Positions 1 through 7,227 of a DNA stretch of 7,227 nucleotides are shown one piece after another (the first letter of the stretch is position 1; every line of letters starts with the position of its first letter). Position numbers and translations under genes: made by a program. Source of the stretch: a virus. Lineage: Duplodnaviria; Heunggongvirae; Uroviricota; Caudoviricetes. The stretch covers positions 1 through 7,227 of IMG/VR virus record IMGVR_UViG_2531839586_000020, one strand, 5' to 3'. The notes beneath the pieces were generated by a model, which was given only the letters and a program-made list of their open reading frames with translations, was not told the DNA's origin and did not search any database.

Positions 1-492
1 AACTCCGGGACGCTCAACAACGTCACGATTAACGAGAACTGTCGGGTTCTGGGAAAACTGTCCGCGAACCAGATTGAAGGCGATCTCGTTAAAACAGTGG
101 GCAAAGCTTTCCCCCGGGACTCCCGTGCACCGGAGCGGTGGCCATCAGGAACCATTACCGTCAGGGTTTATGACGATCAGCCGTTTGACCGGCAGATTGT
201 TATTCCGGCGGTGGCATTCAGCGGCGCTAAACATGAGAAAGAGCATACTGATATTTACTCCTCATGCCGTCTGATAGTACGGAAAAACGGTGCTGAAATT
301 TATAACCGTACCGCGCTGGATAATACGCTGATTTACAGTGGTGTTATTGATATGCCTGCCGGTCACGGTCACATGACACTGGAGTTTTCGGTGTCAGCAT
401 GGTTGGTAAATGACTGGTATCCCACAGCAAGTATCAGCGATTTGCTGGTTGTGGTGATGAAGAAAGCCACCGCAGGCATCAGTATCAGCTGA
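1..492 (+). CDS. J: Tail tip / host specificity protein J, C-terminal 163 codons (5' end outside window)
   Basis: Frame 1 is open from position 1 to TGA at 490-492. Translation ends ...[89 protein letters not shown], which matches my recollection of the lambda J C-terminal receptor-binding end. The ORF track starts at an internal GTG (97) but the frame is open upstream to the window edge. Confidence 0.9.
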
Positions 493-511
493 ATTTTATA
501 ACCCCAATACG

Positions 512-535
512 GGCGCCAGAAATGGCGCCTTTTTT
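512..535 (+). terminator. Rho-independent terminator downstream of J
   Basis: Perfect hairpin GGCGCC (512-517) / loop AGAAAT / GGCGCC (524-529), followed by a T6 run (530-535). Sits 20 nt after the J stop. Confidence 0.6.
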
Positions 536-559
536 ATTGCAGAAAAGCGAGAGGTAATT

Positions 560-1140
560 ATGCGTAAAGTTTATGCAGCCATTTTGTCCGCAGCCATCTG
601 TCTGGCCGTATCCGGTGCGCCTGCATGGGCGTCTGAGCAGCAGGCCACACTGAGCGCAGGGTATCTTCATGCCCGTACGAACGCTCCCGGCAGCGATAAT
701 CTGAACGGGATTAACGTGAAATACCGTTATGAGTTTACGGACACCTGGGGCTGAACGTCTTCAGTATGCAGGAAGATGAGCAAAAAACGCATTACAGCGA
801 TACCCGCTGGCATGAGATTCCGTCGTAACCGCTGGTTCAGCGTATGGCGGGCCGTCTGTGCGCGTGAATGAATGGTTCAGCGCGTATGCGATGGCGGGTG
901 TGGCTTACAGCCGTGTGTCGACTTTCTCCGGGGATTATCTCGTACTGACAACAAGGGGAAAAGCACGATGTGCTGACCGGAAGTGATGACGGTCGCCACA
1001 GCAACACGTCTCTGGCGTGGGGGGCTGGCGTGCAGTTTAACCCGACCGAATCCGTGGCCATTGATATTGCTTATGAAGGCTCCGGCAGTGGTGACTGGCG
1101 CACTGACGGTTTCATCGTGGGTGTCGGTTATAAATTCTGA
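560..1140 (+). pseudogene. lom: lom (outer membrane protein Lom, Ail/OmpX family moron), frame-disrupted
   Basis: RBS GAGAGG (549-554) then ATG at 560. Frame 2 gives MRKVYAAILSAAICLAVSGAPAWASEQQATLSAGYLHARTNAPGSDNLNGINVKYRYEFTDTWG, then TGA at 752-754. Lom-like peptide then continues in shifting frames: SDTRWHE (frame 1, about 796-816), RRNRWFSV (frame 2, 821-844), VRVNEWFSAYAMAGVAYSRVSTFSGDYL (frame 3, 858-941), and KHDVLTGSDDGRHSNTSLAWGAGVQFNPTESVAIDIAYEGSGSGDWRTDGFIVGVGYKF (frame 1, 961-1137) ending at TGA 1138-1140. Span 581 nt is not a multiple of 3. Identity is confident; the pseudogene call assumes the sequence is accurate. Confidence 0.75.
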
Positions 1141-1167
1141 TTAGCCAGGTAACACAGTGTTATGACA

Positions 1168-1193
1168 GCCCGCCGGTTCAGGCGGGCTTTTTT
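1168..1193 (+). terminator. Rho-independent terminator downstream of lom
   Basis: Hairpin GCCCGCC (1168-1174) / loop GGTTCA / GGCGGGC (1181-1187), followed by a T6 run (1188-1193). Immediately precedes the stf RBS and start. Confidence 0.6.
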
Positions 1194-1775
1194 GTGGGGT
1201 GAATATGGCAGTAAAGATTTCAGGTGTACTGAAAGACGGCACAGGAAAACCGGTACAGAACTGCACAATCCAGCTGAAAGCAAAACGTAACAGCACCACG
1301 GTGGTGGTGAACACGCTGGCCTCAGAAAATCCGGATGAAGCCGGGCGTTACAGCATGGACGTTGAGTACGGCAGTACAGCGTTATTCTGTTGGTGGAAGG
1401 TTCCCGCCGTCACATGCCGGGACCATCACGTGTATGAAGATTCCACCGGTACGCTGAATGATTTTCTCGGTGCCATGACGGAGGATGATGCCGTCCGAGG
1501 CACTGCGCCGTTTGACTGATGGTGGAAGAGTGGCGCGTAACGCGTCCGGGTGGCACAGAACACGGCAGCCGCAAGAAGTCAGCCAGGATGCCGGCACATC
1601 GCCGTGAGGCGGCAACCCATGCGACTGATGCTCAGGCTCAGCACGGCAGCCAGCACTCAGCCGGCAGGCCGCGCGTCGGCTCAGTCAGCTCTTCCAGCGC
1701 AGGAACGGCATCAACAAAGGCTGAAGCATCAAAAGTGCTGCGCTGCAGAGTCCTCAAAAAGCGCGGCAGCTACCA

Positions 1776-4007
1776 GTGCCGTGCGGCGAAAACGTCAGAA
1801 ACGAATGCGGCAGCGTCACAACAATCGCAGCCACTTCTGCATCCCCGCGACCACGAAGCGTCAGAAGCGCCACCTCAGCCCGGGATGCGGCGGCCTCAAA
1901 AGAGGCAGCGAAATCATCAGAAACGAACGCATCATCAAGCGCCAGTAGTGCCGCTTCCTCGGCAACGGCGGCAGGAAATTCCGCGAAGGCGGCAAAAACG
2001 TCCGAGACGAACGCCAGGTCTTCTGAAACGGCAGCGGGACAGAGCGCCTCAGCTGCGGCAGGCTCAAAAACAGCGGCTGCGTCGTCTGCCAGTGCCGCAT
2101 CAACAAGTGCCGGGCAGGCCTCAGCCAGTGCCACCGCTGCCGGAAAGTCGGCAGAAAGTGCCGCATCGTCTGCTTCAACAGCCACAACGAAGGCTGGCGA
2201 AGCCACTGAACAGGCCAGCGCAGCAGCGAGGTCAGCTTCCGCAGCGAAGACATCCGAAACGAACGCGAAAGCGTCGGAAACCCGTGCAGAATCCTCAAAA
2301 ACGGCTGCCGCATCGTCAGCCAGTTCGGCGGCGTCATCGGCATCATCGGCGTCTGCTTCAAAAGATGAGGCGACCATACAGGCGTCAGCAGCGAAGGGCA
2401 GCGCCACGACGGCATCCACGAAGGCGACAGAGGCTGCTGGTAGTGCGACGGCAGCAGCTCAGAGCAAAAGTACGGCGGAATCTGCAGCAACGCGCGCTGA
2501 GACAGCGGCAAAACGGGCAGAGGATATTGCATCCGCCGTGGCGCTTGAGGATGCGAGCACGACGAAAAAGGGGATAGTACAGCTCAGTAGTGCGACTAAC
2601 AGCACGTCTGAAACGCTGGCGGCAACGCCAAAGGCAGTAAAATCAGCCTATGACAATGCAGAGAAACGTCTGCAGAAAGACCAGAACGGCGCTGATATAC
2701 CCGATAAGGGACGCTTCCTGAACAACATTAACGCGGTCAGTAAAACAGACTTTGCTGATAAGCGTGGTATGCGTTATGTGCGGGTTAACGCTCCTGCAGG
2801 TGCAACATCTGGAAAATATTACCCTGTTGTTGTTATGCGTTCTGCTGGCTCAGTAAGCGAACTGGCATCAAGGGTCATTATCACCACGGCAACGCGAACC
2901 GCAGGCGATCCGATGAATAACTGCGAGTTTAACGGATTTGTTATGCCTGGTGGCTGGACTGACAGGGGGCGTTATGCTTATGGAATGTTCTGGCAATATC
3001 AAAACAATGAACGAGCCATCCACTCAATAATGATGAGTAATAAGGGCGATGATTTGCGCTCTGTGTTCTATGTTGATGGCGCTGCTTTCCCTGTTTTTGC
3101 GTTTATCGAAGATGGCCTGTCAATATCCGCACCTGGTGCTGATCTCGTTGTTAATGATACGACCTATAAGTTTGGGGCAACAAATCCGGCGACTGAATGT
3201 ATCGCGGCGGACGTTATCCTTGATTTTAAGAGTGGGCGTGGTTTTTATGAGTCTCATTCGTTAATCGTTAACGATAACTTGTCGTGCAAAAAACTTTTTG
3301 CCACAGACGAAATTGTAGCGCGTGGTGGTAATCAGATTCGAATGATAGGTGGGGAGTATGGGGCATTATGGCGTAATGATGGCGCTAAAACTTACCTGCT
3401 GCTTACCAATCAAGGTGATGTTTATGGTGGCTGGAATACATTAAGACCGTTTGCTATTGATAACGCAACCGGCGAACTGGTTATTGGAACCAAACTGTCC
3501 GCAAGTCTGAACGGTAATGCATTAACAGCAACAAAGCTGCAAACGCCAAGACGGGTTTCTGGTGTTGAGTTTGATGGTTCCAAAGATATTACTTTAACCG
3601 CCGCGCATGTGGCTGCTTTTGCCAGAAGGGCAACGGATACATATGCCGATGCGGATGGTGGCGTTCCCTGGAATGCCGAATCAGGCGCTTATAATGTCAC
3701 CCGCTCTGGCGACAGCTATATTCTGGTTAACTTCTATACCGGAGTCGGAAGTTGCCGGACCTTGCAGATGAAGGCGCATTACAGAAATGGTGGTCTGTTC
3801 TACCGTTCTTCAAGAGACGGTTATGGTTTTGAGGAAGACTGGGCAGAAGTTTATACCTCGAAAAATCTTCCACCAGAAAGCTACCCAGTCGGCGCACCAA
3901 TCCCGTGGCCATCAGATACCGTTCCGTCTGGTTATGCCCTGATGCAGGGGCAGACTTTTACAAATCTGCCTACCCGAAACTTGCAGCCGCTTATCCGTCA
4001 GGCGTGA
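1776..4007 (+). CDS. stf: stf central fragment: longest intact ORF of the disrupted side tail fibre gene (Ala/Ser-rich shaft repeats plus distinct central domain). The ATG at 1776 is probably not a real start
   Basis: 743-codon ORF in frame 3. Contains [24 protein letters not shown]..., [44 protein letters not shown] and ...[21 protein letters not shown], all recalled as Stf-like. The last 16 codons (after about 3960) are out-of-frame read-through. Confidence 0.6.
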
Positions 4008-4585
4008 TCCCTGATATGCGTGGCTGGACGATTAAGGGCAAACCCGCCAGTGGTCGGGCCGTATTGTCTCAGGAACAGGACGGCATTAAATCGCATACCC
4101 ACAGCGCCAGCGCATCCAGTACGGATTTGGGGACGAAAACCACATCGTCGTTTGATTACGGCACTAAATCCACGAATAACACCGGGGCGCATACGCACAG
4201 TCTGAGTGGCTCTACGGGGTCTGCCGGTGTTCATACTCATGGTAATGGTATTCGTTGGCCAGGAGGCGGCGGTTCTGCGTTAGCATTTTATGATGGCGGT
4301 GGGTTCACTTATGTCCAGAATTCACAGTATCAAGTAAGCCCGGAGACTTCTTCCTATAGATCGTATTATCAACGTATTCAGACACAGTCAGCAGGTGCTC
4401 ATACCCACTCGCTGTCTGGTACTGCAGCAAGTTCTGGCGCACATGCACATACTGTAGGTATTGGTGCGCATACGCACTCCGTTGCGATTGGTTCACATGG
4501 ACACACCATCACCGTTAACGCTGCGGGTAACGCGGAAAACACCGTCAAAAACATCGCATTTAACTATATTGTGAGGCTTGCATAA
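3905..4585 (+). CDS. stf: stf C-terminal fragment (His-rich repeat region, receptor-binding / Tfa-dependent tip); the first roughly 18 codons are out-of-frame overlap
   Basis: Frame 2 ORF. From about 3962 it reads [52 protein letters not shown]...GAHTHSLSG...[49 protein letters not shown], matching the recalled lambda Stf C-terminus. Stop TAA at 4583-4585. Confidence 0.6.
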
Positions 4586-5169
4586 TGGCATTCAGAATGA
4601 GTGAACAAGCACGGACCATAAAAATTTATAATCTGCTGGCCGGAACTAATGAATTTATTGGTGAAGGTGACGCATATATTCCGCCTCATACAGGTCTGCC
4701 AGCAAACAGTACCGATATTGCACCACCAGATATTCCGGCAGGCTTCGTGGCTGTTTTCAACAGTGATGAGGCATCGTGGCATCTCGTTGAAGACCATCGG
4801 GGTAAAACGGTTTATGACGTGGCTTCCGGCGACGCGTTATTTATTTCTGAACTTGGCTCGTTACCGGAAAATGTCACCTGGTTATCGCCGGAAGGGGAAT
4901 ATCAGAAGTGGAACGGCACAGCCTGGGTGAAGGATACGGAAGCAGAAAAACTGTTCCGGATCCGGGAGGCGGAAGAAACAAAAAACAGCCTGATGCAGGT
5001 AGCCAGTGAGCATATAGCGCCACTTCAGGATGCTGTAGATCTGGAGATCGCAACGGAGGAAGAAACCTCATTGCTGGAAGCCTGGAAAAAATATCGGGTG
5101 TTGCTGAACCGTGTTAATACAACAACTGCACCTGATATTGAGTGGCCGGAAGAACCAGACACAATGTAA
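4585..5169 (+). CDS. tfa: Tail fibre assembly protein Tfa (194 aa), intact
   Basis: ATG at 4585 overlaps the stf stop (TAATG); RBS GAGG at 4573-4576. Translation [91 protein letters not shown]... is near-identical to recalled lambda Tfa (orf-194) and the same length. Stop TAA at 5167-5169. Confidence 0.92.
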
Positions 5170-5172
5170 GCG

Positions 5173-5219
5173 AAAAAGAAAAACCGCAGACACGACGTAT
5201 GCAGGACGTGCTGCGGTTT
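5173..5219. terminator. GC-rich hairpin between convergent tfa (+) and the minus-strand cassette; candidate bidirectional intrinsic terminator, stronger for the minus strand
   Basis: Stem CCGCAG(A)CACG (5184-5194) pairs with CGTGCTGCGG (5207-5216) around a 12-nt loop. On the minus strand the hairpin is followed by TTTTTCTTTTT (complement of 5173-5183); on the plus strand only TTT follows (5217-5219). Confidence 0.45.
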
Positions 5220-5335
5220 GGCTAGTAAACTTTTGATAGTGCGAGTATTGAATGATTTCCAGCCCATTACTCATTTTACGCTTTTCACGCGCAAGAGAAA
5301 TTGAACTTTATTCCTCTGTCACCACATGACGGGGA

Positions 5336-6094
5336 TTAACATTCTGGATTTTTTATTTCTAAATCAGATAAAGCATTAATTCTTATTTTTTCTAAGGCTT
5401 TATCCATGGCCCCCTTGATTCTGTATCCATAATCATCCGGTTCTTCATATTCCTGTGGGGACGGATTTGTACCAATATTCTCAATTAATTCATTTAAAAT
5501 AACTGTTACTTCTTTATTAAGAAGAACTGCTTTAGTTAACATCATCTCTGTTAATGCTGTGAAGGCTAGGCTAAGTTTCTGTTGTAGCTCTTTATTTTTT
5601 AATTTAAGATCTTCATCGTTTAGTGCTTTATCACGGTCTTCGTGAGCCTGTTGTACTTCATCCCAAAACAGCTTTTCTTGTTCTTGATTAAAATATCCTT
5701 GATAACTATTGGCTACATATGTTGGCATCATGTGAATCTCAATAATTTCAAATTCATTATCAGCCCATTTTTTTATACTAAGTAACTGAGTGTAAATGTA
5801 CTCATACATATCGTACTTTTTTTGCCAGATTTGTTGAGAAATCCACAACTCAGAAGTAATCTTTTTTTCTATATCTTTGATAGTTGTTGTATTTAATGCT
5901 AACTGCTTTCTGAGTATTTCATAGTTAGCGTTGGTAGCAGAAATTTTTGCTTTTTCAGTTATAAAAGAAACAATAAAGTTCACTATGAGAGCTGCAATAA
6001 TAATAGCGAAGCTCAACCCTAAAATCTCTGTGGTTGAGAAATTAGATGACTGTAATGCTTTGATAAGTTCAAAAAACTGTTTTTCTGTGAGCAT
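5336..6094 (-). CDS. Hypothetical single-pass membrane protein (252 aa), AT-rich cargo gene B; function unknown
   Basis: 759-nt ORF in roughly 32% GC DNA (sample counts), where long ORFs are unlikely by chance. ATG at 6094-6092 is preceded on the minus strand by AAGGT about 5 nt upstream. Hydrophobic stretch ILGLSFAIIIAALIVNFIVSFI (residues about 24-45) then a charged, probably helical domain (...EDRDKALNDEDLKLKNKELQQKLSLAF...). No recognisable catalytic motif. Confidence 0.75.
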   Translation of the reverse strand: MLTEKQFFELIKALQSSNFSTTEILGLSFAIIIAALIVNFIVSFITEKAKISATNANYEILRKQLALNTTTIKDIEKKITSELWISQQIWQKKYDMYEYIYTQLLSIKKWADNEFEIIEIHMMPTYVANSYQGYFNQEQEKLFWDEVQQAHEDRDKALNDEDLKLKNKELQQKLSLAFTALTEMMLTKAVLLNKEVTVILNELIENIGTNPSPQEYEEPDDYGYRIKGAMDKALEKIRINALSDLEIKNPEC

Positions 6095-6165
6095 GGTACC
6101 TTACCAAAAATTAAGACTGTTATCTATATAAAAATGTTACCCAAGAGGGATTGTAATGAAATAAC

Positions 6166-6187
6166 AAACCGGCACATTGGCCGGTTT
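6166..6187 (-). terminator. Hairpin directly after the stop of gene A; candidate intrinsic terminator or attenuator between the two cargo genes
   Basis: Perfect 8-bp stem AAACCGGC (6166-6173) / 6-nt loop / GCCGGTTT (6180-6187). On the minus strand it begins 5 nt after the gene A stop and is followed by GTTATTTCATT (U-rich). The stem has only 5 G:C pairs, so strength is uncertain. Confidence 0.4.
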
Positions 6188-6192
6188 GAAGT

Positions 6193-7227
6193 TCAAGGGG
6201 GTGAGATTGTAGAGGCGTTACCTTGTTCTATCACACCAGACCTAATCTTATAACTACCAAGGATGTTGACCGTTTTATTATTTTTCATCGCGTCAAAAAT
6301 TAAGCCTATTTCATCAGGATCATTGATAAAACTGGTATCAACATAGATCGGGAATGAATCATCACCTGTTGGCTCATGGCAGCTTAACGTTAGCTTATCG
6401 GCTGAGCGTTTTATACTATCAATGACAACTTCCAATGTTTGCTGCTCTGACTTAGCCTTTTCAATTGGGTTCTTGATGATTTCTTGAACCTGACCTTGCG
6501 AAAGCTCAATATTGCTGGCCCCGCGGATCGTCACTTTGTCTGCATCAGATGCACCTTTAAGAACTCCAGTGTATGCCTTAGCTGTGTGCTCTTGGATACC
6601 TTCGGCGCGCTCTATCGTATCAATACCTTCATGTGCTTTTATTGCAGACAGCATACCATCGCGTAGAATTGTCATCCGCTCGGATTCTGCTCGCTGTTTT
6701 GCTTCTTCCAGTTGTAACTCAATAGTTTTGGTTTCGACTTGTGTCTGATGATCTAAGTAGGACGTACCGACCCATGCGCCGCCTAAAACTAAGACAGCAA
6801 ACAGGAAACACATTGTTTTCTGTCTTGGGCTCATACCTTGCGTTACCTTCTCAAATGCGTTACCAAAGGAATCAATAAGTTCTTTAACTGAGGTGATAAT
6901 TTCTGTGCAGCCAGGATTGATAGTAAAAACCAACTCTGCAGCTTCTCGATCCTCAGCAGTGAGCTTCTGTAAGTTAGAGGTTTTGTACTTGATTAGAGTA
7001 AAAACCTTGTACATCTCAGTTTGAAATTCACAGATACCCTGTGCCAAACTTGCAGGCAGAGTACCATTATACTTATCTTCATCACCAAAAAATTTGAAAT
7101 CAATACTTTCTAAGAAGTTTAACTTCAAATTTTCAATGTGGATTTCTTCGCCTGAAATAACTCGTCCGAAAATATTTTCTATATCATCAATATCATTGAT
7201 TTCATAGGCCTGAATTGCATCTTCCAT
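6193..7227 (-). CDS. Hypothetical membrane-anchored protein (at least 344 aa), AT-rich cargo gene A; function unknown
   Basis: 1035-nt ORF on the minus strand, stop TGA at 6195-6193. The ATG is the last three bases of the window (7227-7225), so the RBS and promoter are not visible and the true start could be upstream. Acidic N-terminal region, one hydrophobic segment MCFLFAVLVLGGAWVGTSY (residues about 139-157, coded about 6757-6813) with basic residues on its N-side (SPRQKT), then a roughly 185-aa C-terminal domain ending ISPP. No Walker, nuclease or other motif recognised. Confidence 0.7.
   Translation of the reverse strand: MEDAIQAYEINDIDDIENIFGRVISGEEIHIENLKLNFLESIDFKFFGDEDKYNGTLPASLAQGICEFQTEMYKVFTLIKYKTSNLQKLTAEDREAAELVFTINPGCTEIITSVKELIDSFGNAFEKVTQGMSPRQKTMCFLFAVLVLGGAWVGTSYLDHQTQVETKTIELQLEEAKQRAESERMTILRDGMLSAIKAHEGIDTIERAEGIQEHTAKAYTGVLKGASDADKVTIRGASNIELSQGQVQEIIKNPIEKAKSEQQTLEVVIDSIKRSADKLTLSCHEPTGDDSFPIYVDTSFINDPDEIGLIFDAMKNNKTVNILGSYKIRSGVIEQGNASTISPP

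Follow-up and report, generated by a model that had tools for sequence, protein, structure and literature searches.

A solitary membrane-anchored gene module at the end of a lambdoid prophage, tentatively read as a superinfection-exclusion or defence factor

Lambda-type morons are autonomous promoter–gene–terminator cargo units at prophage ends, a term that names a genetic format and not a function. Inner-membrane superinfection-exclusion proteins include HK97 gp15 and T4 Imm. The prophage-encoded SieA protein of P22 also resides in the inner membrane, where its authors propose that it blocks DNA entry; it has three (or four) transmembrane (TM) helices and a cytoplasmic motif, FxRYPxEAxxFNK (PMC10883804). 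SNIPE (PD-lambda-1) is membrane-anchored, with a periplasmic N-terminus and cytoplasmic C-terminal domains that were mapped experimentally, and acts on injecting lambda DNA (PMC13190303). Here we analyse gene B, a minus-strand gene within 7,227 nucleotides (nt) of a Caudoviricetes record (IMGVR_UViG_2531839586_000020, positions 1 to 7,227), a stretch referred to below as the window. Gene B is best read as a solitary, single-gene piece of cargo (a 'moron') that temperate phages and other mobile elements carry, and its product is predicted to be tethered to the inner membrane, where it may, as a tentative reading, exclude or defend against other phages.

A conserved and mobile single-gene module

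Gene B starts with ATG, preceded by an AAGG Shine–Dalgarno sequence 4 nt upstream. Its homologues form 56 clusters at 47–99% identity, and eight genes taken from different genera each have 252 codons and zero indels, with pairwise ratios of nonsynonymous to synonymous substitution rates (dN/dS) of 0.07–0.17 at often saturated synonymous sites. An exhaustive hidden Markov model (HMM) search recovered 198 representative clusters related to B at E ≤ 1e-3, including 37 at E ≤ 1e-10; nearly all of these relatives are 200–280 amino acids (aa) long, and most of the distant ones align only at profile positions ~22–105. The homologue clusters, the low dN/dS without indels and the 198 distant representatives together establish that B is a real gene and not a chance open reading frame (ORF). 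It is conserved and horizontally mobile: its roughly 200 representative relatives occur in Enterobacterales, Aeromonas, Vibrio and Pseudoalteromonas, and the G+C content of the gene is 31–35% in each host checked, including Aeromonas, Klebsiella and Escherichia coli.

The genomic settings of B are varied. In E. coli, where 35 of 5,426 complete genomes carry it and where it is found in the uropathogenic strains UTI89 and NU14, B is the final gene of the prophage and comes after tfa or pinE. A position beside an integrase or an icd attachment end is seen in Klebsiella, Citrobacter and a metagenome-assembled genome. A Proteus prophage has it in the Q-to-lysis moron slot, next to HEPN_Toprim_N and FRG genes; it is inside an integrative and conjugative element in Pectobacterium, on a megaplasmid in Pantoea and on a contig with ParM and IS110 in Serratia. 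The copies in Aeromonas and Pseudoalteromonas are lone chromosomal insertions away from recognisable prophages. Genes near B include RnlAB, HicAB, a T5orf172 protein and the PADLOC candidates PDC-S39, PDC-S15 and PDC-S57; across these contexts no neighbour is conserved, and neither a conserved partner gene nor a conserved small ORF was found.

Prophages of Klebsiella, Citrobacter and Enterobacter (loci L015–L020, L037 and L045) carry an SRAP-domain gene (PF02586, ~222–225 aa) on the strand of B, 240–320 bp downstream of it, and umuDC, dinI, RnlAB or HicAB are often near these B–SRAP loci. Neither the window nor other B contexts have the SRAP gene, which is thus often found near B without being its partner. 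At the Klebsiella locus L015, an icd (isocitrate dehydrogenase) fragment is called just upstream of B (6702–6884). The DNA upstream of B in Serratia, Pectobacterium and E. coli loci (L003, L021 and L033) aligns to this icd block with no icd gene called, and the alignment suggests icd-derived remnants there; B would sit at the attachment-site end of icd-integrating (e14-like) elements or of their remnants. What had appeared to be a conserved element upstream of B (CTTCGAACCA...CATGT) is an icd fragment at the attachment end of icd-integrating elements and is not regulatory, and a MAFFT alignment of the window's gene A terminator to the icd block was judged spurious.

The window corresponds to the right arm of a lambdoid prophage, with lom, stf (side tail fibre) and the tail fibre assembly gene tfa on the plus strand; beyond them, a low-G+C block (31–37% versus ~50%) holds the minus-strand genes B and A. 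With the order J, lom, stf, tfa, B, A, dinI and attR/prfC, the prophage has B in its last cargo slot, in antisense orientation relative to the late genes. The sequence of E. coli Ec-U11 (L002) supplied the promoter region of A, the second repeat copy described below, dinI and attR/prfC, all of which lie past the right edge of the window. That edge (7227) coincides with the start codon of A, and the contig IMGVR_UViG_2778261151_000017 (L041 and L050), which encodes A and B proteins identical to those of the window, ends at the same point.

An earlier note on this DNA, written from the sequence alone, had implied that B depends functionally on A, and a two-gene system, for example a sensor and an effector on opposite membrane faces, is the reading to which that view leads. 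Of the 5,426 complete E. coli genomes, 28 have the two genes side by side in one orientation, 98 bp apart, in a locus flanked by tfa and a dinI-like gene that adjoins prfC; Enterobacter hormaechei has the ~2.3-kb A–B block as well (84% nucleotide identity), within another prophage located at smpB. The predicted topologies of A and B are opposite and could be complementary. In addition, the upstream alignment shows that the AT-rich block found upstream of stand-alone B genes is lost in the window cassette, and no consensus promoter lies between A and B.

The distribution of the two genes argues strongly against such a system. In IMG/VR, 38 of 43 A loci lack B, including copies of A at 93–95% amino-acid identity (L054 and L055) at which homology to the cassette breaks off immediately past the hairpin downstream of A; these are otherwise matching cassettes without B, a finding that the earlier note had itself named as telling against its proposal. 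Gene A stands as a lone gene directly downstream of a cI-like repressor gene in at least 21 loci, and also in the phages mEp332 and PhiR12_x and in a Citrobacter braakii prophage. This slot is the position of rexAB in lambda, and B never adjoins cI in the loci examined. Conversely, B occurs without A in four of nine viral B loci in IMG/VR (61–80% identity), in seven E. coli genomes as a divergent copy (71% nucleotide identity; a divergent A without B is found in five), and in Klebsiella, Citrobacter, Proteus, Aeromonas, Serratia, Pectobacterium, Rahnella and Pantoea. In every genus examined other than those of E. coli and Enterobacter, B is without A, and more than 10 genomic contexts of B lack A. 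Only a single sublineage, found in E. coli and Enterobacter, has the pair. Gene A is thus not an obligate partner of B; obligate pairing is largely refuted, and we consider a two-gene A–B system very unlikely.

Homology breakpoints place a boundary between the genes. The A-only loci L054 and L055 align to the window up to position ~6163, and the B-only loci L045–L047 align from ~6127–6146; at B-only loci the shared sequence reaches from 46–52 bp before the start codon to at most 42 bp past the stop. A stable terminator-like hairpin of module A parts the genes (fold energy −16.6 kcal/mol, z −4.56) and is also present in the Enterobacter cassette and at A-only loci. The breakpoints, the A-only and B-only loci and this hairpin show that the window cassette consists of two independent single-gene modules joined end to end; A is a separate neighbour that lies outside B's system. 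Within the A–B sublineage, B may be transcribed by read-through from A, given the loss of its upstream block and the lack of a consensus promoter between the genes, and a secondary functional link between A and B in E. coli and Enterobacter is a possibility.

On the minus strand, B is terminated by a conserved segment, the convergent terminator of the tail-fibre genes and dinI, in which the hairpin (fold −20 kcal/mol, z −4.4) is followed on the minus strand by the U-run UUUUUCUUUUU. This segment is present in ~2,700 E. coli genomes, in HK97 and in mEp460. In each of these two phages it occurs once, with the tail fibre gene on one side and dinI on the other; cassette-bearing genomes have a second copy, at 87% identity, beyond A and next to dinI (L002, 8374–8472). 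The A–B cargo was therefore inserted into the terminator and is bracketed by ~100-bp direct repeats. The repeat-flanked terminator marks a site of recurrent cargo insertion, and the locus illustrates how a cargo slot is constructed: two unrelated single-gene modules, one of which usually follows cI and the other usually sits at prophage ends, have been spliced end to end into a duplicated terminator between tfa and dinI.

Two further features concern the tail-fibre half of the window. Compared with the Ec-U11 prophage (97% identity), the window shows 43 short gaps, each a deletion and usually of 1 nt, which cluster at 496–963 (lom) and 1372–1869 (the 5' part of stf), plus one at 3960. They break lom and stf into several frames (for example, 1199–1519, 1776–4007 and 3905–4585), and none falls in the half that holds B and A. 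These gaps resemble local errors of assembly or sequencing, though decay of lom and stf is another possibility. A full-length match to Rfam IS009 (RF02111) lies at 4928–5126 (+), within the 3' part of tfa (225 bits, E 4e-56).

Membrane anchor, topology and fold of protein B

The top 19-residue Kyte–Doolittle window of B covers residues 24–42, and all windows that score above 1.6 are inside residues 19–49 (Table 1), in agreement with the single N-terminal hydrophobic segment (residues ~24–45) that had been described before. This TM helix has the lowest sequence conservation of the N-terminal half. It is retained solely as a hydrophobic segment, which suggests that it is an anchor and not a pore lining.

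The stretch directly after the helix, TEKAKISATNANYEILRK, is basic-leaning, as the earlier note had pointed out. Lysine and arginine (K/R) are more numerous in the 15 residues that follow the TM helix than in the 15 that precede it in 150 of 154 family members; distant relatives have a mean of 3.4–3.6 K/R after the helix versus ~0.5 before, and many of them have just a few acidic residues before it. From this flank bias, B is predicted to be a single-pass inner-membrane protein with a periplasmic N-terminus and a cytoplasmic body, which fits the previous suggestion that the large domain is cytoplasmic. The N-terminal tail, which is kept in the close clade and is missing from many distant relatives, is predicted to face the periplasm.

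An AlphaFold2 (AF2) model built from a 36-sequence alignment (mean predicted local distance difference test score, 76.7) is all-helical, with helices at residues 4–16, 21–113, 115–129, 137–159, 161–192, 194–207 and 219–245; the second of these is the TM helix running on into the stalk. Residues 47–113 are the best-conserved part in both close and distant alignments, and the other helices of the bundle vary. The TM helix, the stalk and a WxxQQxWxxKxxxY motif are common to the representative relatives of B. Within the helix EK.WI.QQVW.KKQE.YE.IF, W84 and Q87 are invariant and Q88, W90, K93 and Y97 are near-invariant. The family also shares a C-terminal A..EL.L ending, and an acidic-aromatic loop, YEEPDDYG (residues 216–223), is conserved.

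The helix-rich body that had been expected is borne out by this model, as is the Lys/Glu/Gln-rich charged region by the composition of the protein (E 10.7%, K 9.5%, Q 6.0%, L 11.1% and I 10.7%; net charge −11). The soluble part is acidic throughout the family, with a median net charge near −11. The proposed coiled-coil character was not supported. A crude heptad score has its maximum (0.53) at residues 48–82 and is not above shuffles (p about 0.10), and residues 161–186, which had been quoted as coiled-coil-like, form one helix of the modelled bundle. Given the helix-turn-helix bundle of the AF2 model and the heptad signal, B is modelled as a membrane-anchored helical bundle on a stalk and not as a long coiled coil.

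Searches with B against Pfam (checked to E ≤ 1), NCBIfam, PHROG and PADLOC returned nothing significant, in line with the earlier view that the protein belongs to no assigned family. The same was true of 32 distant relatives against the Pfam (E ≤ 0.01), PADLOC and PHROGs libraries, of 10 relatives with N-terminal extensions and of B against BFVD; a sequence search of solved structures (PDB) gave only a formin-binding protein at E = 1.2. Weak matches, among them LeoBC, PspC, an Rz-like spanin and Csn2, came from a single member each and were dismissed as effects of TM or helical composition. No catalytic family was found in any library searched, and B is strongly predicted to have no enzymatic domain. 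Protein accessions and peptide strings of B do not occur in the searched literature. The protein is best filed as an uncharacterised family in a known genetic niche, that of the single-gene prophage moron.

Table 1 Features of gene B and its surroundings in the window
Feature	Position	Strand	Description and basis
Tail-fibre/dinI convergent terminator segment	5181..5280	.	Ends B on the minus strand; hairpin at 5181-5219
Gene B coding sequence	5336..6094	-	252 aa plus TAA stop; ORF list, homologues, dN/dS
Variable acidic C-terminal helices, residues 114-252	5339..5755	-	Predicted to pack with helix 81-113 as an up-down helical bundle
Juxtamembrane stalk (residues 47-80) and W-motif helix (81-113)	5756..5956	-	Best-conserved part of the family; invariant columns, per-segment conservation
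Codons of W84, Q87, Q88, W90, K93, Y97	5801-5845	-	Inside the W-motif helix
Single TM helix, residues 24-46	5957..6025	-	Kyte–Doolittle maximum 2.79; hydrophobic segment in relatives
N-terminal tail, residues 1-23	6026..6094	-	Predicted amphipathic helix 4-16; AF2 secondary structure, alignments, flank charge
Only native upstream DNA of B in the cassette	6095..6140	-	Shine–Dalgarno sequence plus ~46 nt; homology with B-only loci
Junction of module A and module B	6141..6162	.	Alignment ends of A-only and B-only loci
Intrinsic-terminator-like hairpin	6165..6188	-	9-bp GC-rich stem, then UUAUUUCAUU; between A and B
Gene A	6193..7227	-	344 aa, phrog_6191; promoter beyond the window edge

A tentative role in exclusion or defence

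The pattern of B is that of a solitary moron under conflict-type dynamics. Its compact module, its foreign base composition, the combination of purifying selection and patchiness, its shuffling among cargo slots and its orientation antisense to late genes point, by analogy, to a lysogen-expressed, membrane-tethered superinfection-exclusion or defence factor that acts alone, a reading that we hold tentatively and rate as somewhat short of probable. The lack of a catalytic domain, the anchor-like TM helix, the conserved membrane-proximal helix and the variable acidic bundle argue for a tethered protein that binds and does not catalyse. Under this proposal, B would be expressed in the lysogen, work alone and act through binding at the cytoplasmic face of the inner membrane, where it would disrupt infection by competing phages at an early stage close to the membrane, for example by acting on genome delivery or on proteins that enter together with the genome. 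In this scheme, the conserved stalk and W-motif would dock onto a host or membrane partner that is itself conserved, and phage specificity would come from the variable acidic bundle. A bolder claim, which we put forward with considerable doubt, is that the relatives of B form a previously unrecognised single-gene, non-enzymatic anti-phage family, in which the tethered acidic bundle would block genome entry or capture co-injected phage proteins by binding, with WxxQQxWxxKxxxY as the docking motif and the bundle as the specifying part.

The same layout, conserved near the membrane and variable farther from it, could also serve an abortive-infection effector, in which the bundle would sense a phage cue and the stalk and TM helix would then oligomerise and either permeabilise or depolarise the inner membrane, so that the infected cell dies before phage release. 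The single TM helix without an enzyme domain would suit such an effector; the juxtamembrane segment at residues 48–82 is the only heptad-like stretch of B and could drive oligomerisation, and the abortive-type systems RnlAB and HicAB are among the neighbours of B. However, the TM helix is without the conserved polar face expected of a pore lining, the heptad signal does not rise above that of shuffled sequences, and B has no likeness to holins, RexB or TM effectors in PADLOC or PHROGs. We regard abortive infection as an improbable function of B.

Several points weigh against the exclusion or defence reading itself. No homology or specific fold similarity of B to proven defence or exclusion proteins was found. 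It has no match in PADLOC v2 (2023) or PHROGs, was not found in the DefensePredictor supplementary tables (some of them incomplete) and is present in 0 of 50,697 deposited phage genomes. No sigma-70 consensus promoter was found directly upstream of B in the window, between A and B, and its expression in the lysogen is for this reason assumed rather than demonstrated. The topology has the positive-inside rule as its sole basis and is a prediction, not a measurement; within the close clade the K/R difference is small (mean 0.94 in the N-terminal flank versus 2.03 in the C-terminal flank). In the opposite topology, B would be a signal-anchor protein with its N-terminus inside, and a periplasmic bundle would block the passage of the tail tip or of ejection proteins, or would sense a periplasmic cue as four-helix-bundle (4HB) sensor domains do. 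The small difference in the close clade leaves some room for this arrangement; the bias across the wider family favours a cytoplasmic body, and we think the opposite orientation rather improbable.

Support for an exclusion or defence role from gene context is guilt by association, as non-defence morons are also found at prophage ends, and the recurrent neighbours SRAP, umuDC and dinI are SOS or DNA-damage genes and not classical defence genes. These neighbours favour a different reading, in which B is a non-defence accessory membrane protein for lysogenic conversion or element maintenance, which could modulate a host inner-membrane process, envelope stress, the SOS response or the element's own induction. 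The lone chromosomal copies in Aeromonas and Pseudoalteromonas, with no recognisable prophage near, and the presence of B in the uropathogenic strains are compatible with such a role, and nothing links the fold of B to immunity. However, purifying selection together with extreme patchiness, foreign G+C content and slot shuffling is the typical pattern of a conflict gene, no tie of B to a host pathway was found, and the reading is poorly specified. We judge a non-defence role to be unlikely, although it merits serious consideration. Were B not anti-phage, it would be another conserved hypothetical membrane protein of mobile elements; as an exclusion or defence factor, it would add a family overlooked by current defence catalogues, as PADLOC v2, Pfam, PHROG and NCBIfam have no model for it.

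Comparison with described systems

In genetic format, B resembles the lambda-type morons: it has compact limits and foreign G+C content, lies antisense to the late operon in an intergenic terminator with flanking repeats, and occupies many unrelated slots. It differs from them in that the window has no recognisable promoter of its own for B. Two other kinds of prophage cargo were considered and set aside. Rz-like i-spanins are anchored by a TM helix, with their N-terminus inside the cell and a coiled coil in the periplasm, and are encoded in a lysis cassette with an Rz1 lipoprotein partner; the match of B to phrog_739 has E = 0.98, B follows tfa and is not in a lysis cassette, and its predicted topology is opposite. 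RexAB is an obligate pair of a sensor and a multi-TM channel, co-transcribed with cI. Exclusion of this type was rejected for B because it is gene A, alone, that fills the rex slot, and PADLOC and PHROG show no Rex match.

The fold offers generic likenesses. The 4HB sensor domains of the 4HB_MCP, NIT, TorS and NarX type, and designed helical bundles, share 5–11% identity with B. In contrast to 4HB_MCP proteins, B has no Pfam 4HB_MCP match, one TM helix in place of two and no output domain, and its bundle is predicted to be cytoplasmic.

Among exclusion proteins, SieA is similar to B as a small inner-membrane protein that is encoded by a prophage cargo gene, alone and without an enzymatic domain. 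However, SieA has three TM helices and short soluble parts, whereas B is predicted to have one TM helix and a 200-residue cytoplasmic helical domain; the FxRYPxEAxxFNK motif is absent from B, which also has no PHROG match. The resemblance of B to prophage inner-membrane exclusion proteins is one of analogy only, as B lacks the defining features of each specific family with which it was compared.

The comparison with SNIPE is similarly divided. B lacks DUF4041 and the C-terminal GIY-YIG/T5orf172 nuclease, is predicted to be all-helical to its C-terminus and has no PADLOC PD-Lambda-1 match; it is half the size of SNIPE and acidic rather than DNA-binding, and it is best conserved next to the membrane, whereas the N-terminal region is the least conserved part of SNIPE. 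Both are single-gene systems on mobile elements in E. coli, and B is predicted to share with SNIPE a short periplasmic N-terminus, one N-terminal TM helix and an elongated helical cytoplasmic part. SNIPE is, by analogy, a plausible precedent for a membrane-tethered, cytoplasm-facing protein that intercepts phage at genome injection; SieA offers a second precedent, of a prophage-borne inner-membrane protein proposed to stop DNA entry. If the exclusion or defence reading is true, B would be a non-enzymatic counterpart of SNIPE and would be useful for studying inner-membrane events in phage genome entry.

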